Part shown: in pieces, positions 5,307 through 43,410 of the stretch
Layout of the letters: each line of letters opens with the position of its first letter
Numbering within the stretch: the stretch's first letter is position 1
NCBI RefSeq assembly: GCF_037042905.1
Contig: NC_087245.1
Span: forward strand, 7,566,001 to 7,630,000
Source: Lytechinus pictus
Lineage: Eukaryota
DNA length: 64,000 nt
Direction of reading: 5' to 3'
The notes under the pieces: model-generated
Seen by the model: only the letters and a program-made list of their open reading frames with translations
Told to the model about the DNA's origin: nothing
The model's database searches: none
Position numbers and translations under genes: made by a program

Positions 5307-6062
5307 CCCGGGGGGGGGGGGGGGGGGCACTCAGTATATAATGCATAGTGGGTATGTGCCGCGGAGGGGACCCCCATTTTCACACTCAAATTTCCGTTCC
5401 AAGGCATAGCATTTTTGTCTTATTGAGAAAAAGAACAAAGAAAGCCGCTCCAAAGCATAGCATTTTCTTCATATCGAGAAAAAAGAAGAAAGATATCCGC
5501 TCCAAAGCTTCGCATATTTTCCGTTACGCCGTTCCGGTCGCATTGATCTGCTTCGATGAGCCGCAATTTTGGTGAAAAGCGGCCGGAGAGCGATGTCCGA
5601 CCATCGCATCTGCGCTAGCGCAGCCGGCGCCCGTGCGCCGTGCTAGCTGCATGCATGTTAGTCCTTTGCCAGGACTGTTCTACTTTTCAGTTGATCAATA
5701 ACACAATCCTCGACCTCTACGCCCGAAATGAAAACAGCCACACGATTTTGAGGGGCGTGAAAGAGGGGATAGCGCGATCACTGGAGATGGCGCGCAGGGG
5801 AGAATAAAGGAAGGGGAGAGAAATAACAAGTACACCGACGTCTAGAATCTAGACTACATGCATGTATGCCCGTTCCATTGGGATGCACACGCAGGCGACC
5901 CGTTCCAAGGACCCCCGTTTTCACAAACATTTGTAGTTCCGAAGCCCGTTCCGAGGACCCTCCTTTTTACAATAAGCCCGCTCCAAGGCCCCCGTTTTTT
6001 GTCTCGCCCGCGGCACACCCCCACCACATTTTTGGTCGAGTGCCCCTCCCCCCCCCCCCGGG
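5307..6062. mobile_element. 756-bp non-autonomous hAT-type element just upstream of ADA
   Basis: Termini CCCGGG(G)n...GCACTC inverted; exact 8-bp TSD CTCCACCT (5299-5306, 6063-6070). Confidence 0.9.
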
Positions 6063-6354
6063 CTCCACCTCCCTGTTATGAACTTGTACTAAGCCTACTA
6101 GCTGGCCTTTCACATTGTATAGTCATATGTAGTCATATATAATATAGGAAGTTTAAACAGTACGTGGTAGGGCATCTTATAATTGACCTTTGAGCAGAGC
6201 CGCTGCTGTAAGACTAAAAGATCTCAGTCTACATGTGGGAATGCGTTACTAAAACATTGCCATCCATGATTGTGTGCATTACTCAGTGTAGAAGAGCTTG
6301 ATGAGTGCAAGACTGAATACTGGGATCTGTGATAATTAATATCTTAGTAAGGAC

Positions 6355-6393
6355 ATGGCACAATCAACATTCACAGATAGAACATTTCCAAAG
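6355..6393 (+). CDS. ADA: ADA exon 1 (MAQSTFTDRTFPK)
   Basis: ATG...CCA AAG|gtaggt; resembles the vertebrate ADA N-terminus (MAQ...PK); phase 0 matches exon 2. Confidence 0.85.
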
Positions 6394-9300
6394 GTAGGTT
6401 AGCCTATACATTATATCGTGACTTGCGTTGAATATTATCCATCCTGCTTGGAGTCCGTCAGGGTATACTCCGTTCAGGGACCTTCAAGGTTTCGCAACCT
6501 TTAGCCCATAGACACGGAATCTTTTCTCACTCAACTTCGCGTTCTCCTTTTATAAGATTGGCTTTCCAAAGAATAAGCGAGCAAATCAATGAAGCGCTTT
6601 GCGCCCGCTTTGCGGTATGCGGTTCATCTGGCTAATCATTTTTTTTTTCGGAAGGGGGGGGGGGCAAGATTTGTCCCAACTGAAGAGCAAAAGTAGCTAC
6701 CATTAGAAATAATAATTGTATTATTATTATTATTATTATCATCATTATTATTTATTGTTATTATTATTATTATCATCATTATCATTATTTTTTTTACTAT
6801 TATTAGTATTACTAATAATATGCTAACACGTTGCAGCTACTATACTCAAGACACCCGCCACCAATATGAACTTTAAAACTCACAAATCTCTTGCTTAGTG
6901 ATGAATTCTCATCAAACCTATGCACCAATATTCTGGGTTTTTTTTTCTTTTAATTATTAAAACCCATTTATCTAGTGGTTTGAAATTATTATTCAGTGAA
7001 TGCTTAAAGTGTTCTCTGTCGAACAGACAGTGGTGTCAAACTATAACAACATTTATGTTGGCAAATAAAAAAGTCACTTGGACAGTTGTAGTGGCAGATA
7101 ACCGCGTCTGAAGTACAGTACAACTGTTTACTCCTCCTATTCAACGTTGCCATATCTCTATCATACCTCGTTCATGTCGTTATTATAATCACTTGCTGAA
7201 TAACGTTCTTCTTCATGCATGGACCATGGATGCATGGACAATGTCACCATGCATTCAACATGACTTTCACTCAAGACATGTTGATCTTAATATCAAATAT
7301 CACGATTTTTTCAACCTTTTTATTTATTCATAATTATTTTTTAAATCAACGTGACTCTTTCAAAACTAGTTCTCAACTAGAGCCGCTTTAAAAGGATTGT
7401 TATCTGTTGCTAAATGACACGTTATTAGCAATCATTATCACAATGGTTATTTCCTGGTTTAGAAGGTTTAAAGTGTACTGCAATCATTCTGTGTTAAATC
7501 TGGGAGGACATAAATGTATTCTAAGGTGGTAGCGATACTATGATGCTAATTATTGCTATCAAAGGGTCAATTTTTTTCGAAATCAGTAAGCCCAACGTTA
7601 TCATACACTTATAAATTGGTTAAACGCACATGATGCAGTTATGTGAGTCAGGGAGTTGAGAGGAAACTCAATGGCCCTTATTCTGAAGTCAGGTTTAACT
7701 TAGAACAGCTAACTCTGTGCTAAAATTATAGGGAGCCAGAATTTCAAGAATTATGTTTATAATGTATATTTTTTATGTTTACTATTTAATGTCCTTTTGC
7801 TTTCACAATGAAGAAAAATACTTCAGTTATAATTCCCAGACAATTATGAACAATTTTGCTGTCACATGAGTTAGTTATTTGAATGACACTGTAAGGGATT
7901 TGTGCTCCAATTGACTCTCCATATTTAAACCACAACTTTAAACCCAAGTTCAGAATAAGGGCCCATGTGTGAATAATCTTTGATATCTCCGAACTATCGT
8001 ACTGGCGGGGTCACCAATGTGGCGCGGTACCACTCACCGCCCCCCCCCCCACACACACCTTTGCATTTACTATTCCCGTTCATGCCCCTGCCCTTATCCT
8101 AAATCCACCTCTGCTTATGGGGAGTGAGTGTTCTAAAGGCATGTTCACTACCATTTCCTAAGACAATGACTGAGGGAAAATGTAAACCGAAAACAAAGAC
8201 TGGTGAAGATCTTAATTGAGTGCCTCAGAGTTTATCCATCAAGATTTCCTGCATCGTTGTTTGTCTAGTCACATCTATCTTTCTATTCACCTTTAACGGT
8301 TGATTCTCTGTAAATATAGGAAGGTGCGCTCTTTGGGCGAAGGGTGGATTGAGCAATAGGGAAAATAGACTAAAGTTCACATTTCACTTATTCATGTATT
8401 CTTCTTTTTATGACAGAGAGAAACTCAGAGATCAAAGGGGGGGGGACGGTCCCCTTTATTTTGCCTCAAAATATGATACGGGTTTAAGAGCAAAGGTGAA
8501 AGCGAGGGCACGCTGAATAATTTGAAAGGATTTTTTTGCGATGCGACTCCCTATTTATGAGAGTATAAAGAGTTAAGGTAACCGTATATTGTTTGGTTGA
8601 ATATCGACATATCAGAGAGGATAAAGAGGTGGAGCATATTAACCGTTATGACTGTAGGAAAGAACGAGTGTTAGGGTTAGATAAACTTCGAATAAGCAAT
8701 GAATGTTTGGGCCTATCTTCTATGGTTTCCTATACACTCTTAAAATGTTGGGAAACATACTGTTAAAACAATAATTTGTTAAAATTTTATCAAATTCTGG
8801 TGGGTGTTTCATAAGGCTGTTCGTAAGATAAGAACGACTTAAAGAACGACTGGTGATCTTTTCTTTTGGTAAATGGTATACACCATAGGCGATGGTTTAG
8901 CTCGTAAGAAATGATCACCAGTCGTTCTTAAAGTCGCTCTTAACTTACGAACAGCTTTTTGAAACGGCCCCTGGGTAGTTTTAAACCAATAATATATACC
9001 CAGAGTTGGATAAATAAAAAAATTAACCAATTGTTGTGTGGACAGTATGTTGCCCAAAATTTTAAGAGTGTAGACCTAAAGAATCGATTATTGCAATTAA
9101 ACCATCAGAGTTCCAAGGAGACGGTTTTACAATTTGTGAGAGACACAATGAGGATTGATGCCTTGCCAAAGGATGCTTTTTGTCGATTTGATCTTGAACC
9201 TGGCTCGAAACCACTTACAATGTCAGATGAGCTGTTCCAATCCCATTTTTTCAAATCAATGTGGACATACATTATTTTTATGCCATTTAACATTTCATGA

Positions 9301-12002
9301 CTTTGGCAGGCCTTACCAAGGCATAATTCAATGTAATCTTAAGATATGAATTATCTGAATAATATAATATGTTAATTCCGCATTGTGAATTGTCGAGTTT
9401 ATTTTTTTGTGCACTTGCGTTTTCGTGTGTTTTCAAGAGAGATTATTCCCACTTCCTGGATATCATATTTTTAAAGGCAAGCAAGAGAAACATGTTATTT
9501 CCGAGCCAGATCATTGGGATGTCATGTGACTTGAAAACTTTCATGTTTTACCTTTGATCTGTGTAGCCAGTCGTACATGTTTCCTTGTTCATTTTTATGA
9601 TGTTGAATTTTTATTTTTTATTATCTATTTATTAATATTTCACCATGGTAACTCATTCAACAATAGTTGATCTTCCATGAGGCCCTGGATAACTATATAC
9701 AATTAAAAACAATGATGATAATACATATATACAATCATCAAGTCATAAGATATTGTTAAATACATATAAAGTAACAACAGCATTATATCAATTAATACAT
9801 ACAAAATGAATAGATCAGTATAGAAAAACAATTTCTGAAAGGGGATTGTTATGTTGATCGGCCTAGACAAGATTGAGGAAATGTCTTTTTACAGTTTGAA
9901 ATTATTTAGGTTGTAACATTCTTAATACTATGGGGAGACTATTCCATAGAACGCAGCCATCATAACATAAGCACTTTTATAATAATCTGTGTGAAATTTA
10001 ACTCAAACTAAATCATGATGAGCACTTTGTCGAGTATTTACATTATAAACTTTAGACATTTTTTTGAAAACATTTTTGAAACAATCTGCTGAAAAGTCAT
10101 TAAGACATTTATAAAAAAATATATATACACAATATACACCTTAAATATTCTACTCTTTTCTTAAAAGGCATCCATCTGACGAGAAAAAAAAATATTAGAG
10201 GGGGTGTATATATTACAGTTCAAAATAAGCCTTGCTGCCCTCTTTTGCAATTTAGTCAACTTATCAATTTGACCTAAATACAAATTCCCCAAATTTCACA
10301 ACGGTAATCCGTTTGTGTTTGAATAAAACTTCATTGATGATTCATCAACTTTTGATGTGACTCTTATATGATCATGACAAGTCATTCAAATACTTTTCTA
10401 CATACACTGTAAAAAATAATATTGGGCATTTTTTTTTACCACCACGAGGGTAATTACCGGGGGTAATTATGTGGACAACCAATTTTGGGCAGTATTTTAC
10501 CTAATGCGGGAAGCATATTGTCCAGTAAGGTTAAAAAAATAAGCAGCAATTACTTTAGAATGGGAAAAATGTTCACCACACTGGATAAATAAAAATACCC
10601 AAAGAAATGCCCAATGATGGGCATTTAAAACTATTACACTTTTCAATAGCAATACTTTCATACTTTATAGAAATGAAAATATCTTTTAATACGCTAAGTC
10701 TTTTCTTACTGCCAATGATCATATATTTAGTTTTATCAACACTTAAACACAGCTTATTTTACCTATCCACATAGCGATATCATCAAAGTCATTCTGAAGT
10801 TTTTCTTGAATTTCATAAATAGATGTAGCACTTACGTAGAGGGTATTATCATCAGCGTACACGAACGTAGCTATGGAAGAATGATCTTACATTGTCGATA
10901 TTAAAGGAGAATGAAACCCTTGAAACCAGCTGAATCCATATCAAAGAGAAAAATCAAAGAAACATATTGTTGAAAGTTTGAGGAAGATTGAATGAATAAT
11001 AAGAAAGTTATGAGCATTCGAATATTGAGATCACTAGTGCCATGTAGATCCTCCCAACGGCAATGCGACCAAGATCTGTGATATCACACACGTACAACTC
11101 CCTCATTACTTTAGTACTTATTTCACTTATATTCTCACTTTTATAGAGTCTATCACAAGGTGAGGTGTTCTCTTTATGAGATGACAAGTACAGAGGTTTC
11201 ACAACATTATATCATTGATGAATCGTTTGTCATATGATTAGAATGAGCAAAAAGAGATGTTTTGGGGTATATTTTCAGTGTCCAAATGGGAGAGTTGTAC
11301 GTGTGTGACATCACAGATCTTGGTCGCATTGCCAATGGGAGGATCTCCATAGCATTAGTGATCTCGACATTCAAATGCTCATAACTCTTTTATTGCTAGT
11401 CCTATTTTTCTCAAAGTTTTGTTGATCTTATTCTTTGATTTTTCTGCTTTCACAAAAGCTAACTTGCTCCAAGAGTTTCATTCTCCTTTAATTACCATAG
11501 GTTAAGAGTATATAATTTACGTGAATTTCGCACCCCCCCCCCCCAGCCGCCATTCCTCCACACAATCTATTATTTCAAAATATATTATATATATATATAT
11601 ATATTGTAAAGAAATGGATGAAGAGAACAATGGTAGGCGTAGCTTAAATCAAGGTTCCCCAGAGCTATCTACCCTTTGGAAAAATTGGTGATGCCGAAAA
11701 AATGTCTCTGCCGGGAATCGAACCCGGGCCCCCAGCTTTGAACGCCGGTGCCTTAACCACTAGACCACAGAGACGGGTTAGTGGCTAGGGCGACCCCGAT
11801 CCGATTGACCGTCAGATAGACAGATTTTCGACACTATACCAATTATAATTTCCTTTGTCGGGTGAAGGTGGGTTTCGAACAATGACAAGCCGCCATGCTT
11901 CAGCTGGATCAAAGCTATTGCTTTGATACAGTACACGTAAGGGAGAACGTATACAAATGTGTAAAGTTATACATGTACAACAGCTTTGGCAACTCTTTTA
12001 TT

Positions 12003-12037
<35 letters not shown>

Positions 12038-15000
12038 ACAAACAACGATCAAGCCAGTCGGTTGCTAACATTATTCATTCATTGGTCCAATATTGTTGCC
12101 GTCTGAATTCACAATTTTTCATATTTTGATTGAGCGTAACAAGTGAAATAAAAATGCACTTTTGACTGACTATCGACATACATCTAATTCATTTCTTGAA
12201 GAAATGCACCAATTACCTGTTAGAATTACAAATGCGTATAACGTTTGTCACTAAATTTGCTGATTTCGTTTGCTTACCGAAATCATTATACGAGCTATAA
12301 CAAAATTTAATACCTCCTTGATTCATATAACAAAATGCTATCACTATCCAACCGAGAAGCCAGGATTTGATTTTTGAGGGGACGGTAAGTGTACGCGAAG
12401 CGTGCCAACACTTACAGCTCCCTAGGGGGGGGGGGGGGTGCAGGGAGGGTTTTTGGATATCTCATCAAATTTAAATCAAAAGAAGACGTCTCTTGCGTCT
12501 CTATTACCCTTATCAACTGGAATTGAACTGACTTAATGTGATTAAAAAATCTTGTTTTCGAAAGAAATAATGAGCGCTCCAAAATGGGAAAAGATTGAGG
12601 AATTTGAAATAATTTTTCTTACCGCGCAAAGCGCGGACACTAAAACGTTGATAAAAATTGAGAACAGAAGTGGTATACAATGTTTACCTTGGTCACATCA
12701 GATTTGTTTGCAAAAACTTTAGCCACATCAAATTCTTTACCTCGCAAAACAGAGTAGAAGACGGGTAGGCCTATATGCAGGGAGAAAATATTCCTTTCCG
12801 CGAATGACGTTGAAGCTCTGAATTTTCGAATTTTTTCTGAAACCTTAACCTACTCTAATTTTGATATTTCTTAGATCATAATAACTCTGCTACGAAAAAA
12901 GTTCAAGAGTTCAATTTGTGAAAGGAATGATGCTAGAAGAGGAACTTTTCCATTCCTATGCACGCGAACAGTAACCTCTGTGTTTTATTTTGTAAGAAAA
13001 AAATTGTGTAATTTCGCTCAATATTAAGCGCTTCCCTTTGTATGATTTAGATAATTTCAGTGACATTCAAAATTTCAAATTAATGGTGCATAACGAAACG
13101 GGAGGTGGATATGCAGCAATATAGAATAAACTAAAGTTTCATCGTAAATACTTTTTCATATAGCACGGGAATGCCTCCCCCTTTGAGCAGATACTTTGCA
13201 AAAAATTACTTGCTGAAAAGAGGAAGATATAGCGTTGGGGACTCGGAGAGTGACGGTGTTTACCCGCTCCGAAAAGAAGAGCCGAAATTTTGTGTCAATG
13301 CGATTTAAAAAAATATTTTCATATTCTTTTCACTTTATAATATCTGGCAAGAATATACGATTCCTATGACCGGGAGGGGAAAAACGTGTGGGAAAGGCAT
13401 TTTAGATATTTTTTCCCGCGCGGAGTGCGGAAGCAAAATTTTGTATGAAGAGAGAAAAGAACGCCTCGTTAAGGTTTTTATTCTTTTGACAAAAAGAAAA
13501 AGAAAAAAACAATAAAGCTATACCCATCTCCTCCTTTCACTCTTCGCTTTGTTCTTTTTCTCCTTTTCCCTTTCTTTTTTTCTTTTGGGGGGCAGTTTTT
13601 TTTTGGGGGAGGCGACTTCCCCCCACCGCCCCCTGGCTACGCGCCTGTCTCTATCATGCACAACCCATATCTGAAGAACAGGTTGCGGAATATTATTGAC
13701 GGTAAAGTTCGAATTTTATTCGTGATTTCTTCAAATCAAATGGAACTCGCATTTGGCCGAAGTTAACTTTGCAAAAGAATATTTAAAATGTGGAATTTAT
13801 GGTCTCAAGATGTCTTGAATAGAAAACATTATTCTCTTTAATCAGCTCGTTTCAATTCAATTTCGTAGTAATATGCTTATCATATAGAATGAAAAATGAA
13901 TTAGATTTTCGTTGACCAAATCAATATGTTTTTTTCAACTTCAGGTAGAACTTCATCTTCATCTTGATGGTGGAATTCGGCCAGCCACAATCTGGGAGAT
14001 TTCAAAGTAAGTATTTATTCATGACACAGAATCATTTAATTATTTCCTTTTAAACCTCAGGTAAAACTTCATCTTCACATTGAAGGAGCCATTTGATCTT
14101 CAACAATATGGGAGATTTCACAGTAAGTATTCCCGCAAATAAGTTATCAAACTGTCTTAAAATGCCGTTTGCTTACTTCTCTTTTATAGCGTGCACACAT
14201 TTTGCGTGCATCATAATTAAATGTTTTATATCATAGAATGCATTAGCAAAAAATAATAACTCTAGATTTATAAAGTTATACCTTACTTATCTTCAAATTT
14301 AAAAACTACATATACATATTTCATTCTGCTCACTGGCAGTCACGAATCTAGGTGTAAAAAATAGTTGGCTATACGCCCCCTCTTTTATGTTTTGGTTTGT
14401 TTGTTTTGCTTATAAAAAAAACTGTACGGCGAATGGACCCGTGAGTCATTTGCGAATCACATAATTTTCTAAGTGCCCCTGTAATCATGTTAGGTATGCC
14501 CCCCCCCCCTATTGCTAATGTTAATAATGATAATAGTTACCCAGGGATGCCACTTTAGTTCCGAAAACTTCTCACAGTGGGTCCTGCTATTACGTTCTTT
14601 ATCAAATAATTTCATCCGTGTTAATGGCTATACCTATTCCATTCTCTCTACCAATAGCTTTTGTTCTCTTTCAACGGCAGTCTGTCTATCCTGTGGAATC
14701 AAACTTGGAAGCAAAGAATTGAACTCAGTGACGTAACGAATCAAAACTTTTGAGGGGGCCAGATGAGGCGGATGGAGCAAAAGTTTAATAAAGAAGCGAG
14801 CGAGCAACAAATTGCCGTTTTAATACAAAAAATACAAAAATACATTTTTTGATAGCTTTTGTCATAATATTCAGAAAATGATATCATATTTCACACTTTC
14901 CTTTTCTTTTCTTTTCCCTTTTTTTTTTGGGGGGCGTAAAATTTTTTGTGGTCATAGTCCCGCAATCTTCAGGGTTCAAATTTTTTCCATAAGTAATACC

Positions 15001-18000
15001 ATGGGAAAATCTTTCAAATATTTTATTATTTAACAAATTTCATTAAAAATGTATTTGTCATGAATTTTCATTATATCATAATCAGATATAATGATTATCA
15101 TAATAAAATTTGAAGGATATGTATGTTTTTTAATAGAAATTGAATTGCAGTGATTTTGTCGCCTAGGTTAAATTATGTGTGCGAAGAAGTCTCGTGTTTG
15201 CGATGTTGAATTATTTCGTTTTACCAATCATTGCTTATGCTTTTTTCTTTTTTTTTGTCTTGTGTTTCTCATTGTATGCTTATATACTTTTAACTGTAAT
15301 TCTTTGATATTCATCAAATTATATGTGTGCATTAATATTCAAAGTGCTATCTATCTTCATATCTTAGTGAAAAGAGCATTCATCGACTTCTCGTTTTTTA
15401 TAGTCCGTAACATGTACATAGTTGATTTCTTATTCCCTCTGCCTCTCGTCAACTAATCTTGTTGCAATAGATTTATATTCAAATTGGATGTTGTATAATT
15501 ACGTTTGTACTTTCTGAAACTTAATAATATATATACGAAAATATCATATAATTTAAATGATTTAGATGATGAGAAGACGATGCCCCATTTTCTCTAATAC
15601 TTACCGTTAAAGAGCGGAAGACTTTGCACTTAAAAGAGAAGATTTTACTGACAAAATAAAAGAATCATTCTGTAAATTGGTATGACAGTAAATGTTCCGC
15701 AAGACAACAGAACGGGTCTATTAAAAAAAGCGTTATGACTAAAATTACACGATTCTGATTGGTTAAAAATTAAGAAGCAGTTGAGTGCAACTCTGTTTCC
15801 CGGCTTTGTTTGTCAACGTGCCCCTGATCAGCTCATTTTCCTACCTGCATACTCACATAATCAGGTCATTTCATCATGTCGTTTATTCCCAAACTCTATA
15901 CAAAGTCCTCTGACCACCGTTATTTATTAGAAATCAAAGTTTGCCATCGTTTTTTGTTTGTTTCCATGGTAACAGGAAGCGTGGTATCAGTGTCGGCTGC
16001 TCATCGTTGGAAGAGCTTGAAAAGGACCTTGTGGAATGGAAAACGGGAGATCTTAGCACATTCCTATCAGAGTTTAATAGATTTATGCCAGTTTTCATGT
16101 AAGTCTCTGTATTGTGAGTATATACATGATATAAGGATGATTGTTAAAAAAAATACGAAAGAAAAGCATTTAGAAATAATAATAATAGCAATTATAAGAC
16201 AACTACAGTGATAAAGTTAATGATAATGATAATGAATGATTCTACAGTATAATGAATAAAAAGAAATGACCAAATATTAAGTCAAAATCAAAGAATGTCT
16301 AATGACAACATTAAGTTCTGAGACCAGTTAAATGGCCATGGATCCTATACATTGCCACATGCATTAACAATTTTTTTTCAAAATGTTTCTATCAAGGATT
16401 TCAAACTCAAGATAAATACAAACAAAATTGACAAATCCTCGTTTCATATCAATAACAAAATACAAAAATATTTACAAAAAAAAACTGAAGCAAAAAATGA
16501 TTGAATGAAATACCTTTAAAAAATATATATATGTATTTAAAATGAACTGAGCCCCGACCCTCTGTTGTAACCTAATAATATATATAATTAATATTGAAAG
16601 ATTTGCAGAAAAAATTAACAAATTATTGTTCCACCCCCAATATATTTTACATTAAGCTGGTACATAGAATTAAAAATAAACGTACATTGACATATACATT
16701 TTCCGGTGATCAGGAGCGCACAGACACAATCTTAATGATGGGCATTGTTGTCTCATGAAGATGTAGACATACTACTGAAAAGAAAAAAAGAGGTGATAGA
16801 ACTTTTTAAAATCACATTAAGAACTTAATTCATTAAAAATACTGATTTTGAGCGACTTTCAATATTACTTTGATGAATAGGTGTAATTATTGTTGTATTT
16901 CGTGTAATGGAATTATCGTTATTGTCTGTCTTGATACTGTATTCTCAGAGGGGACCTGCAATCAATAAAGCGCATCAGTTATGAACTCTGTGAGGACATG
17001 TCTAAGGAAGGGGCGGTCTACTTCGAGGCTCGTTACAGTCCTCATCTCTTCTCAAACTTACCAAGGGTAAAGAACTTTTTCAATGTACCTGAAGGTGACG
17101 TAACACCACGTGATGTCGTCCGAGTAGTCAACGAAGGTATCCGAGAAGGATCAAAAGACTTCGGCCTTCAGGCCCGGACAGTATTATGCATGATTCGTGA
17201 CAAACCAGGTAAGGATCCAGGTGGGTTTTTCATAAAGCTGTTCGTAAGTTAAGAGCGACCTTAAGAACGACTGGTGATCCTTTCTTGTGGTAAATGGTAT
17301 ATTGGCGACGGTTTAGCGCGTCAGAAAGGATCATCAGTCGTTCTTAAAGTCGCTCTTAACTTACGAACAGCTTTATGAAACGGCCCCCAGTGGTTCCAAA
17401 ATTGTGATAAATATAAAGGTCTCAAGTATTTACTTTAAAAAAAACCTTTTGCAAAATTTTGGAGCATAAAAATTTAGGAGGGATTAATTTGAAACACTCT
17501 TTGTAAAACTTTCAATGCCATGAAAAATCAGTAGAATTAATTTTCACGACTTCCCTTTTATTTAATTGGATTTTACGGATCTTGCACAGATAAGATATAG
17601 TTTTTTTAATTGGTACTTAATTATTGGTGTTCTCTCTTGCTATATAATTCATATTACTCTGTTTGTCTCCCTAGAATGGTCTGCTGAAGTTCTTGAATTG
17701 TGCAAAGAGTTCCATAACGATACAGTCGTTGGTATTGACCTAGCCAACAATGAAATGCTTGAACTTTACACACAACATATAGAAGGTTTCAAGGTAAATC
17801 CAACTGCCCCCCAGTCAATTCCTTCCTTTTTCCCATTCTCCCTATATATCAGAAAAGGACTTTAATGGGTATGGTTAAAGTAGGACTAAATCTTTTGATC
17901 ACGGATTGACATTTGTTTGGTTGTTTGCCTGGTACCACATCTTGTTTTAAAGGTTACAAATCCAATATATAGTGATATATTAGATCTGTATATAATTAAA

Positions 18001-21000
18001 GTATTAAAATGAAAATCAAATCTGTAAATTTAAGGTAATACATTCATCCGTCTTCCACAATTAAAACTCAAAACTTATCTCACCAGGGCCTGCAGTTTTA
18101 CAAGCTTGCTTTTATGGAGGTCCCACTCCCATCATATTTCTTTGACTTGAATTAAGCGTTTCCTTTATCACTCGAATGATAATTGTATCATTATATTGTG
18201 CTATTTGTATACCTCTCAGTTGTCTATAATTTAATGCTTATGCATTAGTGTTGCTGCTTTTTATTTAAATCAAATGTCAATGAGAAATATGAAAATAAAT
18301 GAAATGAAATCAAACTTACGATCATGACCAGTGACTGATCCCTCCTTCTTTTTACTTTTCTCTTGTTTTTCCTTCTAGATCAGACCATTTAATGAACTTT
18401 TACAGTCGTTACATTGTCATTACCTCTGTTTGATAATATTGTGCTTTGTATATATTTTTGTGTGTGTCAGGACCATGATGTAAAGCAGCCTCGGCTGATC
18501 ATGTTTTATCTTTATCCTGAATAAATATGTTAGAATGAAAAATGAAATAAAATAGAAATAAATGTCCCGTTTGTAGGTCAAGCTTATAAAAATTCACCTC
18601 ACGCTTTGGGTTCTCAATAATTATTTATTTTTGTATATATCTTGTCTAATAAAATCATCATGAAACTCTTTAGTTTTTTTCAGATCGGAATATCGATTTT
18701 TTTTTTGGGGGGGGGGTCTGCTTGCGCTTTGAACACGCATGTTGTTAAATTAAATATTCATCCTGGTGAGAATCACGAAAACTGCTCAAATGTTCTAAAG
18801 TCGAAATCGCCAAATATTTCAATTCAGGTTTCGCACTCGTAATCACCAAACTATTATTTAACTATAGTGCATCTCTAACCTTGTGTTTGTCTAACTCGTG
18901 ATTTTTGCGTGTCGCGTTTACTCTTCCGAGGGCTGATCGGTGCCAGAAATGACTGAAAAATGACAAGGATACTAAAATTATCATTTCATGAACTCAATTA
19001 TTCTCTTATTAGGGAGCCAAGACGGCTGGTATACATCGTACATGCCATGCCGGTGAGATGGGACCAGCTAGTAGTGTACAAACTGCCATTGAAATTCTTG
19101 AAGCTGAAAGGATTGGTCACGGTTATCACATCTTTGATGATGAGAGCGTCGTGAAGGTAAATATGTGTCTTTATCATTTATAATCATGATGATAGTGAAC
19201 CCTATAGACTTTTCATTCACGACGCGAAATCTTGAATGCACACGCACGTCTAGGTAGTCCATCCTGCGTCGTCAATCATTTCACAACCGTTCTGTCATTT
19301 TACCTTTTAGCCAAATTGGCGTTGCGACAACTTGTCAAGTTGTGTTGCATTGGGCTCAACACAAAATCTTGTTGTTATGTTCTTATATGTATGAATGAAA
19401 TTTTGTCATTATTAATTTTTGGTTATTTCACTGTTAGCTCGCTAAGGAAAAGTCTATTCATTTTGAGGTATGTCCAACTTCAAGTACTCGAACGGGAGCG
19501 CTCGAAGATGATTTTGACAACCATTGCGCTAAAAGGTACAGATAACATTTTACGTTTAAAGGGATGGTCCAGGCTGAAATATTTATATTTCAATAAATAT
19601 AAAATTCACAGAGCAAAATTCTGAAAATTTGATCAAAATCGGATAACAAATAACGAAGTTATTGAATTTTAAAGATTTGCATTATTCCGGTGAAACAGTT
19701 CTAGGCAATGTCTTCATGAATATTCATCAGGTGGGCTGATGATGTCATATCCCCACTTGTTCTTTTGTATTTTATTATATGAAATTAGGTTTATTAAAAA
19801 AAAATCTTCCAAGAACTAAAACAATTGGATTGACAACTGATAAAGTGCATTGGTTATTTATTGCCGTAACTTATTTCATCATAATGGAGACACATCATTT
19901 ACACATGTATATGAAAAAAATAAATCAAATATGATTTCATGTATATATAACGTAAGTGGGGATATGACATCATCCGCCCACCTACTGAATATTCATGATG
20001 ATGTAAATATAAATATTTTCACAAAATATTGATAAACTTTAAAATTCAATAATTGTCCGATTTTGATGACATTTTCAGCATTTTGCCCAGTGAATTTAAC
20101 TCCTTATTTAGATATACATGTAGATATTTTCGGCCCGGATCATCCCTTTAAGCCTTTTGGCAAAGCCAGAATACACACGTATTCACTCGATTAATTGTGT
20201 TGTGCAGTGGAAGAATATCATCATGGGAAATAGTTTAGAAGGGTGAGAAAAATAGAATTATTAAATAGTTTTGTATATATGGGGGTGGTGGTGGTGGTCG
20301 TCGTCGTCGTCGTGATGACGATCATGAAGATGATGAAGGTGGTGATAATGATGATGAAGGTGGTGATGATGATTGATGGTGATGATGATGATTGATGGTG
20401 ATGATGATGATGATGATGATGAATGATGATGTTCATCATCATGTAGTGATAATGATTATGATGATGATGCAGGGCTGTTAATGGTGGTACTGCATGTGGT
20501 GGTGGTGTTATGGCTGACTCGTGTTGATGATATTAATGATGAAGTTGATGTGACCATAATGACAATGATGATGACAATTATAAAGGTCATGGTAGCAGTG
20601 GTGGGAGACAAAAGGATGAATAGCGACAGAAGATGGTGGCGGTGAAATAAAGTTTAATATATTTCTTTCTCTATTTTTCCCCATTCGCAATGTTAGGTTC
20701 CTCAACGAAGGTATGAATATATCAATAAATACAGATGATCCAACGTTGTTTGGTGCGACACTCACAAGAGAGTTTAGTATTGCTCGTAATCATTTCGGCA
20801 TGGATGACAGAGCCTTAGCATTGATGGTGAGAACAATAAAAACATGTCATATGCGGGAAGTAACGTGGGTTGGATGTGGTTACTTTGGTTAAATCGTACT
20901 TCTGTATGTTCTGCAATATATATTTCCTCTCGTTTGACAAGAAGGGTAGGATGTCCCTTCATTAGGTCTTGTGCCATCCAGGAGGCCTATTGATTTTTTT

Positions 21001-21462
21001 TCTTTTTAGACCTTCTTAACTTTGTTTTTCATTGCCTATAAACCTATATCATATAAACTGAGAAACTGAGGAAACACCATCTTCCAATCCCAGATATTCT
21101 GTTTTATCTCCAGAAACAAATACTTTTTTAAATTCTAATCAACAAAGATCATACGTGGGGTCGTGAATATATTCATCCAGCACATCCTTTTCATGATGAT
21201 TTTCCCCCAAATGTGCTTTAATCGAACACAACACATATTTTTTATCGTTTGTTTACAATGTGTGCAATTTATTGTTAAAAGAAAGAAATTAACCGATGAA
21301 CAATAAAGGTATCTTCCATCGATGAGTTATGAGATGATAATATCTATGTAACTGTGTATTTCTTTGCAGACTCTAAATGCAGCACGAGCCAGTTTTTTAC
21401 CCGACGATCAAAAAGCAGAAATGATCCAGAGTCTCAAAGTCAAGTTCAAGGAGATTTTATAA
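6355..21462 (+). CDS. ADA: Adenosine deaminase, 9 coding exons joined (6355-6393, 13945-14006, 15976-16098, 16949-17208, 17675-17793, 19013-19156, 19438-19535, 20697-20826, 21370-21462); 1068 nt, 355 aa
   Basis: All introns are GT-AG, phases are consistent and the spliced frame is open from ATG to TAA. Motifs: PKVELHLHLDG, EARYSPH, VVGIDLA, CHAGE, RIGHGYH, HFEVCPTSS, SINTDDP, NAARASFLP. Confidence 0.96.
7672..7964. mobile_element. PIF/Harbinger-like MITE
   Basis: TIR GGCCCTTATTCTGAA / TTCAGAATAAGGGCC; TSD not clean. Confidence 0.7.
8735..9070. mobile_element. CACT-terminal MITE with TA flanks (relatives at about 10405, 21800 and 28780-29307)
   Basis: ta|CACTCTTAAAA...TTTTAAGAGTG|ta. Confidence 0.8.
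8800..8970. mobile_element. Fold-back Harbinger-like MITE nested in the CACT element
   Basis: Long inverted arms (TTTCATAAxGCTGTTCGTAAG...); 3-bp TSD CTG. Confidence 0.8.
9620..10300 (-). mobile_element. Degenerate 3' fragment of an L2/CR1-group LINE in ADA intron 1
   Basis: Minus-strand translation fragments IDKLTKLQKRAARLI and GCVLWNSLP match the ORF2 C-terminal pattern; boundaries approximate. Confidence 0.75.
10905..11487. mobile_element. 583-bp TTAA-target MITE (Kolobok-like), copy in ADA intron 1
   Basis: ttaa|AGGAGAATGAAAC...GTTTCATTCTCCT|ttaa; near-identical copies at 55373 and 62552. Confidence 0.92.
11697..11702 (-). terminator. Pol III-type T6 terminator immediately after the tRNA-like gene
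   Basis: AAAAAA on + strand directly adjacent to the discriminator base. Confidence 0.55.
11703..11774 (-). tRNA. 72-nt tRNA-like cloverleaf, anticodon TCA by canonical numbering (opal-suppressor-like; probably derived from tRNA-Glu and carried by a repeat)
   Basis: Minus strand: GTCTCTG TG GTCT AGTGGTTA AGGC A CCGGC GTTCAAA GCTGG GGGC CCGGG TTCGATT CCCGG CAGAGAC A, then TTTTTT. All four stems pair; A and B boxes present; G32 is atypical. Confidence 0.6.
13945..14006 (+). CDS. ADA: ADA exon 2a (VELHLHLDGGIRPATIWEIS), Zn-binding HxH
   Basis: ttcag|GTA...AA|gtaagt, 62 nt. Confidence 0.95.
14061..14122 (+). pseudogene. Tandem duplicate of ADA exon 2 (exon 2b; VKLHLHIEGAI*SSTIWEIS) with in-frame TGA
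   Basis: Same length (62 nt) and phases as exon 2a, 47/62 nt identical; intact ctcag acceptor and gtaagt donor; TGA at 14094-14096. Confidence 0.9.
15976..16098 (+). CDS. ADA: ADA exon 3 (KRGISVGCSSLEELEKDLVEWKTGDLSTFLSEFNRFMPVF)
   Basis: aacag|G...AT|gtaagt, 123 nt, phase 2-2. Confidence 0.92.
16949..17208 (+). CDS. ADA: ADA exon 4 (GDLQSIKRISYELCED...EARYSPH...LCMIRDKP)
   Basis: ctcag|A...G|gtaagg, 260 nt; overlaps ORF 16998..17252. Confidence 0.95.
17221..17387. mobile_element. Fold-back Harbinger-like MITE (family of 8800-8970, also about 50781-50941 and 57963-58123)
   Basis: Near-perfect inverted arms; TSD CAG; starts 12 nt after the ADA exon 4 donor. Confidence 0.88.
17675..17793 (+). 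CDS. ADA: ADA exon 5 (WSAEVLELCKEFHNDTVVGIDLANNE...FK)
   Basis: cctag|AA...AAG|gtaaat, 119 nt. Confidence 0.93.
18050..18560 (+). mobile_element. Two probable LINE 3'-end remnants in ADA intron 5
   Basis: Each has a stem-loop-like block followed by AATAAA and a short tandem tail such as (AAATG)n, at about 18295-18310 and 18520-18560. Confidence 0.4.
19013..19156 (+). CDS. ADA: ADA exon 6 (GAKTAGIHRTCHAGE...ERIGHGYHIFDDESVVK)
   Basis: attag|GGA...AAG|gtaaat, 144 nt; carries HAGE and GHG catalytic motifs. Confidence 0.95.
19438..19535 (+). CDS. ADA: ADA exon 7 (LAKEKSIHFEVCPTSSTRTGALEDDFDNHCAK)
   Basis: gttag|CTC...AG|gtacag, 98 nt; EVCPTSS motif. Confidence 0.93.
19560..20147. mobile_element. 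588-bp TTAA-target MITE (second Kolobok-like family)
   Basis: ttaa|AGGGATGGTCCAGGCTGAAA...TTTCGGCCCGGATCATCCCT|ttaa with long imperfect inverted arms. Confidence 0.88.
20281..20645. repeat. (GAT/GGT/GTC)n trinucleotide microsatellite complex in ADA intron 7
   Basis: Visible triplet runs. Confidence 0.9.
20697..20826 (+). CDS. ADA: ADA exon 8 (FLNEGMNISINTDDPTLFG...ALALM)
   Basis: gttag|G...ATG|gtgaga, 130 nt; NTDDP motif. Confidence 0.95.
21370..21462 (+). CDS. ADA: ADA exon 9, terminal (TLNAARASFLPDDQKAEMIQSLKVKFKEIL*)
   Basis: tgcag|ACT...TAA, 93 nt. Confidence 0.93.
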   Translation, partial: TLNAARASFLPDDQKAEMIQSLKVKFKEIL

Positions 21463-22136
21463 GTACTGTTCTATCAATGCTTAGGATTATCAATATTCTT
21501 CCGGGATGGAAACCATGGTAACATGATCATAAATTACTCAATTATATTTTGATGTAAATAACAATTTTTTGTGGATTTTTCTCCTACCAAAAAATATTCC
21601 TATTCTATTGCCTTCAAGACAGTGATGCCACTAAAACGCCTTTTTTTTTACTCGAATCGACTGTAGCTGTATGGTTTCATATTGGTCGGGGTGCTGGCTT
21701 CCAAAATTAATGCACAATATGTCAAGGGCTTTATTGTTCTGTTATGATTTTGTATAAAAAAAACAGCACCCGACCGAAATATGTTTATAATTAAGAACAC
21801 TCTGAAAATATTTGGTAAAAAAAGATCCATGAGGGTAATTATGTTTCCAACTAACATTGGGTATTTCTCTTGGGCATTTTCATTTATCCAGTGTGAAGAA
21901 AATTTTGCCCATTCTAAAATAATTGCTGCTTATTTTTTTAACTTTACCATGCTTACTGGACAATATGCTTCCCGCATTGTGGAAAATATTGCCCCAAAAT
22001 GGTTGGACACATAATTACCCTCGTGCTGGTTAAAATTTTACCCAATATTTTTTATATTGAACTCGAAATGTAGATTTTATGGCCATAATAATGTTATATA
22101 TAATATGATACAATATAAGATATTTAATGATGAGCC

Positions 22137-25100
22137 TTGATTGATTGATTGATTGATTTTATTTGGCAAGTCACCATAACATATATACAGTAGCATTAAA
22201 ACAACAGGCTTGCACAGGATGACCCACGAAAGCTCGAAAGCTTATTTCCAGTGGGGTCCTCAATATACAGAATTAAGATAATAAAATGTTAAAATTATAC
22301 TATTTACATATTAAAAATGAAGAAAAAAATCAGAATTTACTATTACCAATAAATAAGATATATAGACAATAAATAAGATATATACAAGAATATAACGAAG
22401 AAGAAGAAGAAAAGAAGGAGAAGGAAGAGGAGGAACAGAAGAAGAGAGGGGACGAGGAGTAGAAGGAGACGGAAGAAACTGATAACGAAGGGAAATAAAT
22501 AAGGAGAAGAACAACAGCATAAACGTGACGACAATAACAACAAGAAGAGGAGAATAGGAAGAAATACAAGAAATAGAAAGAATAGAAGAAAGGACATATC
22601 GAAGCTTCAATCAAACTATGTAAAATACATAATAATACCTAGTAGAGAAGAGAAAAGAACTAGGTCAGTATTCAGGCTAAATCAACCGTACAACATATCA
22701 TTTGCATCTTCTTTTTGACTCTCAAGTGAAAGATATTCTTTCAATTTCCTCTTAAAATGCAAAAAGTTTCCTATTTCCTTTATATCATTGGGAAGGGAAT
22801 TCCAATGTTTTATAGCATTGTAATAAAATGAGTTACCAATACTACCTACCCTTTCTGGTAAGCAAAAATTGAAATGGCTGTTTCTTGTATTATAGTTATG
22901 TATTTCGGTAACTAGATTAAAGTTTGATCCAATGTAATGATTCGATCTATTGTGATAGATTTTATGCACGTGGTGCAAAATAAGCTGTTTTGATCTTTTG
23001 TTGACTTCAAGAAAACCTGCTCCAGAGAGTTCGGTGTAGCCAACATGGGTTCTGGGACCAGAACAGCTAATGAATCTAACCATTTTATTCTGTATAATTT
23101 TCAACTTCTTTTTATCGAGTTCGCTTATGCCACTAAACCAAGCAGGGTTGGCATAGTCAAATAAACTCTGAATAAGAGCAAAACAGAGAATACGCCTTGC
23201 TTTTTGATCCATACAACTTTGATACCTGTACAAAAATTTCAAACGGGCATTCGCCCTTTTTACGATTGATTCTACTAAAGATGAAAATGAAAGGGAGCTA
23301 GTCAACTCAATGCCTAAATACTTTACAGATTCTTTCCTATGAATTATCTTATTATTGTATGATACTTCAAATTCAAATGAAGTTTTATGATTACTTTTAG
23401 AACAAAACAGAATGCTTTCGGTTTTGCCTAAGTGTAACGATAATCTATTATCAGTCATCCAATCGACACATGTAGACAGCTGTTCGCTAAGTTTTTCCTC
23501 AACAAATTTTGGGTTGGCATTTGAACAAAGTAGTACGCTATCATCTGCATACAATAATAATTTACAGTCAGCTTTTAAACAAATAGACATTTCATTGATA
23601 TAAGTTGAAAATAGGATTGGGCCTAAAATACTTCCCTGTGGAACTCCACACGTTATAGGCATAATTTTGGAACAAATATCGCGAATAGCCACTACTTGAT
23701 GTCGATTCGACAAGTAGGATTTGAACCATGCTACAGTAGCCTGGTTAAAACCCATTATTTGTAATTTTTTCAATAAGATGCCGTGATTAACTGTATCAAA
23801 TGCTTTTTGAAGATCTAGGAGTACCATCCCAACGAATTGTCCCTTAGACATATTTGTTCTCAGATAATCAGTCAAGTGAATAAGGCATGTCTCAGTCGAA
23901 TAGTCATGTCGAAAACCTGACTGATATTCGTAAATCATATCATTTTCTTTAAAATATTTTTCGATCTGAACACATACCGCCTTTTCTAGAATTTTGGATA
24001 CTATGCTTAAAACACTGATAGGTCTATAGTTTTCAACAGCAGTTTTATCTTTCTTCTTATGAATAGGAGTTACTTTTGCAATTTTCATATCCTCTGGGAA
24101 AGTGCTAGTAAAGATAGATAGATTTATTAAGAAATTTAATGGTTTGTACAAACTCTTTGCTCCTTCTTTTAGAAATTTAGCAGGTATCAAATCTAACCCA
24201 GTGCTTTTTGATACATTTAATTTACGCAACTCATTAAAAATGAATTGATCACTAACAGGTAATAATTCAAATTTATCTTGGCTTATACCCTTTTTTTCAT
24301 AAAATTTACGAATGTTTTCACTGTCTGCACTGAAAATGTCTTTGCAAGATGGAAGTTTATCTACCAACGTAGCTGCGACATTTGTAAAATAGGAATTGAA
24401 TTCATTGGAAATAGTTATCTTATCATGACATAATTCTCCGTCAATTGAAACGACTAATTCTTGGTCCTTTCCATTTTTCTTTTTTAATCCCAAACTTTTT
24501 AGATTCTGCCAAAGTCTTTTAGAATCATTTTTATTTTCTTCTATTTTATTTTGTAGGTATTCTAATTTGGCCTTTTTCACCTCTCTTTGAACCATATTTC
24601 TTAATTTCTTGTATCTTTTGGAAAGCGTGTCATAATCCTGATCGCTTAGATTTTTCTTCATTTTTTTATACGCCACATTTCTTTCTCGAATAAGAGAAAT
24701 AATATCTTTAGTCATCCAGTTTTCTGATCTCTGTTTAATTCTAATCCGTTTTTGAGGCGCTATCATATTCAACGTTGAAATAAAAGTATTTTGAAAAACT
24801 GACCAAGCCTTATTTACGTCAGTGCATTGGGTTAAATCTGACCAATCAACGGCAGACAGTTTAAGATTGAAAGATTCTTCGCTATATTTTTTCAACGATC
24901 TGATATCAGTGGTTCTGTGAACACCTATAGCCAGCCTAATTTTCTTTCGTGTACAGAAAGTAAAAGAATGGTCACTTATACCAAGATCAATAACACCACT
25001 TTGACTTATTTTTTGTTCGTTATTACAAATCACATGGTCCAATAAAGAAGAACATGTGTGAGTGACACGGGTTGCATCTTTGATGAGTTGGCTAAATCCA

Positions 25101-25800: not shown

Positions 25801-26039
25801 ATATTAGGTATATATATTCAATATACAGTTGGAATAGATTTCCATTTTATCCAAAAATACACTTAGAAATTAAAATTGTATTGCATTATTCAGAGTCTGT
25901 TCGCTGACGGTGTCATGTAATAAAAATTATATCTTTCTCATGTTTTTCTGTCTTTATTACAACCAAGTGACAGTCGGGATGGATGATAAATTTCAACGTC
26001 TTTCTCAAAATTCACTGTAAAATGAATTGTACCATGTGA

Positions 26040-26385
26040 TGGGGCGTCATGGCCATGTTGTTACGACTCTCGTCTTTCAATTAGCGGGACGTGGGTTCGA
26101 TTCCTAACCATGGCATGTTTTCCTTCAGCATGAAATTCATCCACATTGTGCTGCATCAACCCATGCAGGTGAGGTGAATGGGTGCCCGACAGGATTAATT
26201 TTTTGAATTCACTAAGCGCCCTAGCAGCTGGAGCTGAAGCCGGGGTAATATATAGTGCACCATCGAATAGGTAACTAGATAATCGGCGCCTCATAAATGG
26301 TATATATTACTATTATCAAATTATTATCATTATTATCAGTATTATTATTAATATCATTATTATCATTTCTATCATTATCGTTTAT
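26040..26385 (+). mobile_element. tRNA-derived SINE with (ATT)n tail
   Basis: B-box GGTTCGATTCC; body shared with 28809-29105 (TCCTTCAGCA...ATCCACATTGTGCTGCA...GGTGAATGGGT). Confidence 0.8.
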
Positions 26386-26946
26386 GCATTTTTCGCTGCT
26401 TTTGCGTAACCATGGTAACGGCTGTAATCGTACATTGTGTTTGAAACTTTAGTTCACGATTCACGTCGTTTTTAGTTACTTATTGTGATAAAGAATTTTT
26501 AGAGATGATTAATTTTCTAAGATGATGTACCGGGCAAGGCATGCATGTCCTCGTTGACTAAAAAAATGTCGAGATTTGTCGTGATTTAATGGAATTATAA
26601 GAGCCCCAGTGTACCAATTTCATGTTTACTTTAATTTCTTTTCATGTTACCATATCTTGGTGAGTAGTCTTCGTTTTTATGTATGGTGATTTTTACCAAA
26701 ATGTATTTTATGTTTTACTTTTAAAAAGCAGCTGCCAAATAAAATGATAATCATTTTTATGCTATATATTTGCCTGTGACTACATTGTATTATTATTTGA
26801 ATGACCAAAATAAATTCAATTATGTTGTAAAAATGTGAAGTAGCATTTTTCAAAAAAGGATCCTGATAATATTTTAAGAGATTAAGAGGAGAAAGCGACT
26901 GGACTGTGAGCGTGGTGAGATAAAGCGATGACAATGGAAGAGTAAT

Positions 26947-28280
26947 TGGCTTAGGGGATGGGTGGAGACAGTGACGAGGGATTGGCTTAGGAGAGGAGGT
27001 AGAGGGTGGAGGGATGAAGAGATGAGGTTTGGCTTAGGGGAGGAGGTAGAGGGTGGAGGGATAAAGTGATGAGGTTTGGCTTAGGGCAGGAGGTAGAGGG
27101 TGGAGGGATAAAGTGATGAGGTTTGGCTTAGGGCAGGAGGTAGAGGGTGGAGGGATAAAGTGATGAGGTTTGGCTTAGGGGAGGAGGTAGAGGGTGGGGG
27201 AATAAAGTGATGAGGTTTGGCTTATGGGAGGAGGTAGAGGGTGGAGGGATAAAGTGATGAGGTTTGGCTTAGGGGAGGAGGTAGAGGATGGAGGGATAAA
27301 GTGATGAGGTTTGGCTTAGGGGAGGAGGTAGAGGGTGGAGGGATAAAGTGATGAGGTTAGGCTTAGGGGAGGAGGTAGAGGGTGGAGGGATAAAGTGATG
27401 AGGTTTGGCTTAGGGGAGGAGGTAGAGGGTGGAGGGATAAAGTGATGAGGTTTGGCTTAGGGGAGGAGGTAGAGGATGGAGGGATAAAGTGATGAGGTTT
27501 GGCTTAGGGGAGGAGGTAGAGGGTGGAGGGATAAAGTGATGAGGTTTGGCTTAGGGGAGAGGGTGGAGGGATAAAGTGATGAGGTTTGGCATAGGGGAGG
27601 AGGTAGAGGGTGGAGAGATAAAGTAATGAGGTTAGGCTTAGGGGAGGAGGTAGAGGGTGGAGGGATAAAGTGATGAGGTTTGGCTTAGGGGAGGAGGTAG
27701 AGGGTGGAGGGATAAAGTGATGAGGTTTGGCTTAGGGGAGGAGGTAGAGGGTGGAGGGATAAAGTGATGAGGTTTAGCATAGGGGAGGAGGTAGAGGGTG
27801 GAGAGATAAAGTGATGAGGTTTGGCTTAGGGGAGGAGGTAGAGGGTGGAGGGATAAAGTGATGAGGTTTGGCTTCGGGGAGGAGGTAGAGGGTGGAGGGA
27901 TAAAGAGATGAGGGTTTGGCTTAGGGGAGGAGGTAGAGGGTGGAGAGATAGTGATAAGGGCTTGGCTTAGGGGGAGGAGTTGGATGGTTGAGAGTTAAAA
28001 ACGATGAGGGGTGGCTTATTGGAGGCATGGGGGTGGAAAGCGATGGTGATGGGATGGCTTTGGGAGTATAGTGGGGATGGAGAGATGAAGTGATGAGGGA
28101 GTGGCCTCAGGGATGGTGGGTAGAAAAAAAAGCGAAAAGGCGGTGATTTGGGAGAGAGTGAGTGGGTGGAGAAATGAAGCGATGAATGATTGTCTAAATA
28201 GATATAGAGATGAGCGATGAGGGGTGGCTTCGAGGAGAAGTGGGAGGGTGGGTAAATAGAGCGATGGGGGAGTGGCATAG
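26947..28280 (+). repeat. 47-bp G-rich minisatellite, about 20 clean copies with degenerate flanks
   Basis: Unit GGCTTAGGGGAGGAGGTAGAGGGTGGAGGGATAAAGTGATGAGGTTT; starts at 27031, 27078, etc. Confidence 0.95.
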
Positions 28281-42499: not shown

Positions 42500-43410
42500 C
42501 ATGACTTTCTATATTTAATGACAAACTTTTTTAGGGGGGGTGGGGGCTTGCCAAATATAACGCGCGACAAGATGACCTTCTTTTTTTAGTGACAACTTTT
42601 TTTTTATTTGTCAAATTTTACGAGAGACAAAATGACCTTCGATCATTATTAGTTAAACCTTTTTTTTGGGGGGGGGGGTAGGGGGCTCGCCAAATAGTGA
42701 CACACTTTTTTTGTAAAATTTTACGCTAGAAAAAATGATCTTCAATCATTATCAGTTACCTTTCATTTGTTTTTTTTTTAGGGGGGGGGGCTTGTCAAAT
42801 TTTACGTGGGACAAATGACCTTCATTTTTTAGTGATTTTTTTTTATACTAGACAAATTTTAAGAGGAACAAAATGGCCTTCAATCATTTTTAGTTAAAAC
42901 CTTTTTTTTTGGGGGGGGGCTTGCCAAATATTTCACAAACAAAATGAACTTCAATTTTAGTGACCATCTTTTTATTACTTTTAAAATTTCACGCAGGACA
43001 AAATGACCTTCACTTTTTTTTAATGTTATGTTATATCGAGATTTTATACCTGACTGCTAAACAAGCACGAATGCCTGTGAGCAAGCAACCAGGGGACCGA
43101 CGGCTTAAGGTCCTCTCCGAGGGACCTGGTAATGAGGATAAATGCCTTACCAAAGGGCACTAGCGCACCACTTGGGAATCGAACCCGGGTCACCGGAATC
43201 CGAAACCCCCGCTCTACCGACTGAGCTATCGCGCCTCCGATATGTTAACATTGGGGGGGGGGGGGCTTGCCAAATATAACAAAATGACAGTCTTTTATTT
43301 TTAGTAACCATCTTTTTTGTTTTACTTGTCAAATCTTACGCGAGACAAAATGACAATTTTTCTGTGATAACCTTTTTTTGGGGGGTTGTCAAATTTTACT
43401 TGAGAAAATG
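42500..43410 (+). repeat. Degenerate tandem array (GGGGCTTGxCAAAT...GACAAAATGACCTTC) interrupted by a SINE
   Basis: Motifs recur at roughly 50-130 bp spacing. Confidence 0.7.
43022..43239 (-). mobile_element. tRNA-derived SINE (V-domain-like body)
   Basis: Minus strand GGCGCGATAGCTCAGTCGGTAGAGC...GGTTCGATTCCC then GGACCTTAAGCCGTCGGTCCC; (ATAAC)n tail. Confidence 0.8.

Follow-up and report, generated by a model that had tools for sequence, protein, structure and literature searches.

Mutually exclusive tandem exons are a known kind of gene structure. Described cases include intron 2 of Tpm1 and exons 4a/4b of OGDH, and passages of a human survey (PMC5740500) and of PMC7969005 give about 50 nt between donor and branch point as the steric threshold. 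We analysed a window of 64,000 nucleotides from the sea urchin Lytechinus pictus (contig NC_087245.1, positions 7,566,001 to 7,630,000), in which exon 2 of the adenosine deaminase (ADA) gene is found twice. The pair resembles the known cases in that the copies are adjacent homologues of equal length and phase with a predicted donor-to-branch distance below 50 nt, in that their length is not a multiple of three, which makes the inclusion of both non-productive, and in that they differ at a ligand-contacting residue. What sets it apart is that it codes for the metal-binding strand of an enzyme of purine salvage, appears to be young and lineage-limited, and has a broken copy in one species but not in its sister. 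The same pair is already implicit in the RefSeq models of L. variegatus. To our knowledge, a duplicated exon 2 is not known in vertebrate ADA, and our literature search found neither a description of an exon 2 duplication in ADA nor relevant work on Lytechinus adenosine deaminase. We consider it likely that the two copies, 2a and 2b, are mutually exclusive exons for an Asp-type and a Glu-type enzyme, and that 2b, which carries two species-specific lesions, is dead in L. pictus. The features are listed in Table 1.

Table 1. Features of the L. pictus ADA locus (positions are those of the window).
Feature	Position	Strand	Evidence
ADA exon 1, coding part	6355-6393	+	RNA reads and contig joined to 2a; model P0135
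Exon 2a, live copy, HLHLDG, first two metal-binding His	13945-14006	+	RNA reads and contigs; models P0135 and P0136
Spacer intron between 2a and 2b, 54 nt	14007-14060	+	Sequence; predicted branch A 14039
Exon 2b, duplicate copy, HLHIEG, broken in L. pictus	14061-14122	+	Repeat alignment; open in organism B; L. variegatus isoform X2
Derived G>A in 2b, Glu>Lys in VELH	14064	+	Organism B contigs and 2a read G
Derived CGA>TGA stop in 2b at conserved Arg, codon 25/355	14094-14096	+	Organism B contigs read C at 14094
Exon 3, common downstream acceptor	15976-16098	+	3/4 X15 reads and one sample X2 contig from 2a
Exon 4, constitutive, ADA-type FEARYSP motif	16949-17208	+	Motif; model P0135
Exons 5-9	17675-17793, 19013-19156, 19438-19535, 20697-20826, 21370-21462	+	HAGE, RIGHG and NTDD catalytic motifs

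Both copies are 62 nt long, have phases 0 and 2, CAG acceptors and GTAAGT donors, and align without an indel. They lie in a direct repeat of 91 nt with 78% identity and a spacing of 116 nt, which a local blastn recovers with an E value of 2e-16. An earlier note on this DNA, made from the sequence alone, had described a tandem duplicate of the same length and phases with a 54-nt gap and strong splice sites, and its description is borne out. This applies equally to the 15 differences between the copies, which fall at codon positions 1 (6), 2 (1) and 3 (8) exactly as claimed; three of the ten changed whole codons are synonymous. The translation of 2b, VKLHLHIEGAI*SSTIWEIS, contains the HLHIEG motif, the E-to-K exchange in VELH and the TGA at the Arg codon that the note had reported. 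The adjacent homologous exons, their equal length and phase and their own splice sites are all kept in a related organism, which we call organism B. The donor of 2b equals that of 2a at 9/9 nt; outside the splice signals, the alignment of the flanks does not rise above shuffles (P 0.35), and local RNA structure likewise stays within the range of shuffles (spacer z 0.57, 2b z -0.13). A third copy of exon 2 was absent from the genome, the DNA search giving one match and the protein search two (2a and 2b).

A motif scan predicts a candidate branch A within TTAAT, 33 nt from the 2a donor. As the spacer of 54 nt puts any branch point less than 50 nt from that donor, the joining of 2a to 2b is predicted to be sterically blocked. 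If it did occur, the joined sequence reads K and then an immediate TAA, so the stop on double inclusion (AAG TAA) that had been pointed out beforehand is present. With double inclusion either blocked or stopped at once, exon 1 would splice to 2a or to 2b, and steric exclusion would keep the two apart.

When read through 2a, the nine coding exons of the gene give an open frame of 355 aa, and 9/9 exons match the L. pictus isoform X2 model P0135. The single open frame contains HxHLDG, ExRYSP, HAGE, GHG and NTDD, as does mammalian ADA1 (ELHxHLDG, ExRYSP, HAGE, GHG and NTDD in PDB 1a4l, 3iar and 9vlv), and a tree places the 2a form within an echinoid orthologue group with support of 100/99. Between 2b and exon 3 there is also a 75-nt in-frame cassette exon (AG...GTAACG, 14658-14732, +). 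The L. pictus model X1 (P0133) includes this exon, by which 25 residues would be added behind helix 1. It overlaps or adjoins a low-copy repeat and is absent from the three reads joining 2a to exon 3. An ADA paralogue with the motif HIHLDG and about 50% identity in exon 4 is located 23 Mb away (G000:C1:30,953,185-30,960,556); it has a single exon 2 within the 40 kb examined. In its relatives P0001-P0003 and P0009 the N-terminus is longer by 50-100 residues, perhaps as a targeting peptide.

A search from the echinoid-like orthologue P0004 led to a cluster of six Lytechinus models. Two of them are the L. variegatus isoforms X1 (XP_041479343.1, P0136) and X2 (XP_041479353.1, P0017), both of 355 aa, which share 349/355 residues, the six exchanges being L20I, D21E, G23A, P26S, A27S and K34Q. 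X1 has the residues of 2a and X2 those of an open 2b. L. variegatus thus keeps both copies as annotated isoforms, and the L. pictus locus has the same exon pair; unlike X2, L. pictus 2b has Lys and a stop, these two lesions being its only departures from the exon-2 residues of that isoform. Both isoforms come from automatic RefSeq annotation only; NCBI builds such variant models from aligned transcripts. Of the L. pictus models, the two in this cluster (P0133 and P0135) and P0047 were examined; all use 2a (3/3), and none uses 2b.

Organism B allowed us to polarise the lesions. It is represented by DNA samples X10 and X13 from two studies, with one contig each spanning both exons. Its 2b differs from that of the window at 2/62 sites, where it has G (14064) and C (14094), and is open, with Glu in VELH and Arg at the position of the TGA; its residues equal those of L. 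variegatus isoform X2. Its 2a shows one silent difference from the window, and the intronic differences listed leave AG and GT intact. Each contig has 15-17 differences in all, 6-7 of them unplaced; these would lie in the terminal 30 nt, outside the exons, because no listed difference comes closer to an end than 33. As both lesion sites in organism B have the state of 2a, both lesions are derived in the lineage of the window. The question raised in the earlier note, whether the TGA is CGA elsewhere, is therefore answered by CGA in samples X10 and X13 and by Arg in L. variegatus X2; Arg occupies this position in 5/5 orthologue exons shown. Together with the Glu of organism B and the annotated open isoform of L. 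variegatus, this upholds the note's suggestion of a recently killed alternative exon.

For L. pictus itself, 2b is covered by the assembly and one further sample of the same organism (sample X2), which are possibly related to each other and both carry the TGA. The TGA and Lys might accordingly be a segregating allele, other L. pictus individuals having an open 2b. We regard this as very improbable, since two separate lesions would have to sit on one 62-nt haplotype, sample X2 equals the window over 13978-14190, and no 2b model was found among the L. pictus proteins seen.

The earlier note had read the split over codon positions as a sign of a period under coding constraint. When 2a is simulated as constrained and 2b as neutral, at least eight differences at position 3 and at most one at position 2 are reached with P = 0.02, for a statistic chosen post hoc, and a non-synonymous count as low as observed with P between 0.11 and 0.30. 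Taken by itself the split says little about constraint, as the count at position 3 is also raised by silent changes on a 2a that is still constrained; the reading holds once outgroups are added. The exon of the Strongylocentrotus purpuratus cluster (P0138, P0018) has L, D and P as in 2a, and A, S and Q as in 2b, which implies three amino-acid changes on each copy (A>G, S>A and Q>K on 2a; L>I, D>E and P>S on 2b). A simulated neutral 2b acquires about 11 amino-acid changes and has three or fewer with P between 0.011 and 0.012, whereas a constrained 2b acquires about 3-5; these simulations were set to 7-9 third-position differences under a simple substitution model with no indels or CpG effect. 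Three changes on each copy would thus imply that purifying selection acted on both after the duplication. The dN/dS between the copies, another check proposed in the note, is 0.19 without the two recent sites (dS 0.64-0.72); the unpolarised dN/dS tests are not significant.

These results also bear on the possibility that 2b was never useful, was left open in L. variegatus by chance, and that the X2 model reflects leaky splicing. The unpolarised tests (P 0.11-0.30) are compatible with this, a neutral copy at such divergence remains free of stops in about 61-69% of simulations, and the exon was picked because it looked intact. Still, we think a copy without any past use improbable: it would have had to collect three amino-acid changes instead of about 11 (P of about 0.01) and no indel, to keep its donor at 9/9 nt and the AG and GT in both organisms while the other flanks decayed, and to appear by accident in a full-length annotated isoform.

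The timing of the events can be estimated from the same comparison. Non-coding sequence differs between organism B and the window at 12-14 of 187 sites (6.4-7.5% divergence). With a dS about ten times this value, the exon pair is far older than the lesions, and 2b was therefore open and free of indels, with its splice signals kept, for most of its life. Neutrality predicts 2.0-2.3 changes per lineage in 62 nt; the lineage of the window has two and that of organism B none, the latter having a probability of 0.10-0.14 under neutrality, which is not significant alone. It would appear that selection on 2b lapsed in the L. pictus lineage, the two transitions in 62 nt equalling the neutral expectation. 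Both copies share L and S against I and A in S. purpuratus. This would fit a duplication within the Lytechinus line or close to it, and we infer a young, lineage-limited pair. A 50%-representative protein search added no closer orthologue.

RNA of L. pictus points to the use of 2a. In sample X15, all four reads on the pair (4/4, probably two fragments) lie on 2a and none on 2b, with loose ends in exon 1 (four) and exon 3 (three). Sample X2 shows spliced contigs at 2a only, and one unbranched contig that runs through 2b at a depth of about 4 of intronic RNA or DNA, with no branch at 14060 or 14122 in contigs that drop rare forms. By an arithmetic estimate, the bin depths of samples X16 and X17 fit about two and one further reads on 2a alone; over 6000-17400, where RNA is swamped by repeats, only bin depths were used. 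Some 36-nt matches at the 2a acceptor had six differences and were treated as chance. The count of junction reads that the earlier note had proposed, made here without NMD inhibition, therefore shows the junction of 2a to exon 3 and 0/4 reads on 2b, and no 2b junction read was present in the L. pictus RNA examined, at a tiny depth that is still compatible with low-level inclusion.

According to another suggestion of the earlier note, 2b could be a poison exon, whose stop at codon 25 would lower the amount of ADA through NMD. Its splice sites are intact, the stop precedes seven downstream junctions (exons 3-9), and as NMD targets are rare in steady-state RNA, 0/4 reads says little. However, the stop is young and not conserved (CGA in organism B, Arg in P0017), the number of substitutions is that of neutral decay, and sample X2 has no branch at either end of 2b. 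As no read or contig includes 2b, albeit at low depth, the suggestion finds no support here, and we judge a regulatory role of this kind to be quite improbable. A lapsed alternative exon remains the preferred reading.

The note had further considered that the UGA might be recoded. A possible agent is found in intron 1, where a tRNA-like gene with the anticodon TCA (11703-11774, -) lies in a heavily transcribed unit and has an anticodon-arm pattern with 1,965 matches in the genome; it might allow the UGA to be read through. We nevertheless find this hardly credible. The TGA arose from a conserved Arg codon by a CpG-type change, and it is accompanied by a second damaging change, which lies beside the metal ligands. 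The aligned orthologue exons have Arg at this position and not Cys or Sec, no SECIS element was found in the window at the Rfam gathering score, and no RNA with 2b was seen. The tRNA-like part itself has a short variable arm and G32; it belongs to a mobile repeat that is young, and a predicted rod fold (z -6.6) would bury it. The in-frame UGA of 2b is thus best understood as decay and not as recoding.

The unit that contains this gene is a mobile element of 405 bp, found in ADA intron 1 at 11612-12000 of the window between (TA)n tracts. It has about 2,000 copies and occurs both dispersed and in tandem arrays, at 97-100% identity. A run of six T follows the tRNA cloverleaf, and tRNA calls across 30 overlapping loci give TCA in 83/84. 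RNA from one strand of the unit reaches a depth of up to about 44,000, which by arithmetic estimate corresponds to about 0.9% of the letters of sample X15. A ribozyme search of the unit gave no Rfam match except tRNA. A second, weaker tRNA-like call (Arg, TCG; 43163-43234, -) is made by ARAGORN and receives no score from Rfam. The ADA introns also contain MITE-like inverted repeats (8794-8971 and 17215-17390; 10885-11507; 19602-20097; 10483-10602 with 21870-21998), on which reads from other copies fall on both strands. Downstream of ADA, a putative remnant of a LINE-like reverse transcriptase was noted by eye at about 22900-24000 (-). The GC skew reaches +0.61 at 26001-28000 and -0.36 at 52001-54000, probably because of simple repeats.

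What the enzyme encoded by 2b would do can be approached through the residue that follows the HxHL motif. In ADA, this Asp contacts the ribose hydroxyls. Passages of PMC6239307 name Asp19 among the key ligand-binding residues of mammalian ADA. Mammalian chains (PDB 1a4l, 3iar, 9vlv and others) read ELHVHLDG on strand 1 and EVRYSP, while PDB 3ou8 reads ELHLHLEG and PDB 3rys ELHLHIEG, the latter with the same eight residues as open 2b. We take 3ou8/3pan/3pao/3pbm and 3rys to be adenine deaminases, their PDB label being adenosine deaminase, and 3ou8 is presumably linked to Pa0148. Open 2b therefore resembles ADA-fold adenine deaminases in its HLHLEG/HLHIEG-type strand 1. Unlike in these enzymes, the urchin EARYSP lies in a constitutive exon, so that 2b alters only one of two sites. 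On strand 3, the two chains 3ou8 and 3rys have, in place of ExR(Y/F)xP, an E..DP feature that acts at purine N9 (EPFFDP in 3ou8, EIMMDP in 3rys), whereas L. variegatus X2 (P0017) reads YFEARYSPH, with no DPQ. The 2b form thus has HxH[LI]EG on strand 1 and lacks E..DP on strand 3.

Among 147 proteins collected, the site after HxH is Asp in 124, Glu in 10, Ala in 3 and Gly in 1, with nine lacking the motif. As carriers of Glu include three Diadema orthologues, P0004, an Asterias paralogue and spider and Caenorhabditis proteins, that is, animal ADA-like proteins, HxH[LI]EG is not diagnostic of adenine deaminase. Glu is combined with an ADA-type strand 3 in 26/292 proteins and with E..DP in none, in a set that was gathered with ADA-type queries. 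In a tree of 24 chosen proteins built without exon 2, P0004 and the Diadema proteins (Glu) group with those of Lytechinus and S. purpuratus (Asp) with support of 100/99. Sea-star ADA paralogues (P0022, P0037, P0144, P0024, P0146, P0147) have Ala in Acanthaster and Patiria and Glu in Asterias, a variation at the equivalent of Asp19 suggesting repeated tuning in echinoderms. The 2b peptide alone gave no PDB match and no candidate among long proteins, and NCBIfam returned only weak deaminase-family scores for it that did not separate ADA from adenine deaminase.

Asp and Glu thus toggle within animal ADAs. A tuned nucleoside preference of the 2b isoform is plausible; a complete change to adenine finds no support, and we regard a conversion of the isoform into an adenine deaminase as doubtful. 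The specificity-switching exon for adenine proposed in the earlier note is at odds with the strand 3, which stays ADA-type FEARYSP, and with the Glu of the Diadema orthologues. To judge from these motifs, the Glu isoform would most likely still be a nucleoside deaminase with altered contacts in the ribose pocket, and not an adenine deaminase. The broader proposal that the substrate preference of Lytechinus ADA was switched by splicing, with 2b favouring deoxyadenosine, methylthioadenosine or adenine, and that this switch was lost in one species, is in our opinion unlikely; if true, the loss would make the two urchins, both of them laboratory models, a natural knockout pair.

New at this locus are the loss of 2b in one species and the evidence of past constraint, from which we infer a past function of 2b. 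As the L. variegatus isoforms share all but six residues, they offer a ready pair for determining the effect of Asp versus Glu on ADA specificity, at a site where the ADA-like proteins of echinoderms vary between D, E and A. The locus may thus present a clean and datable case in which a mutually exclusive exon for the metal-binding strand of a core enzyme arose, diverged and then died in one species.
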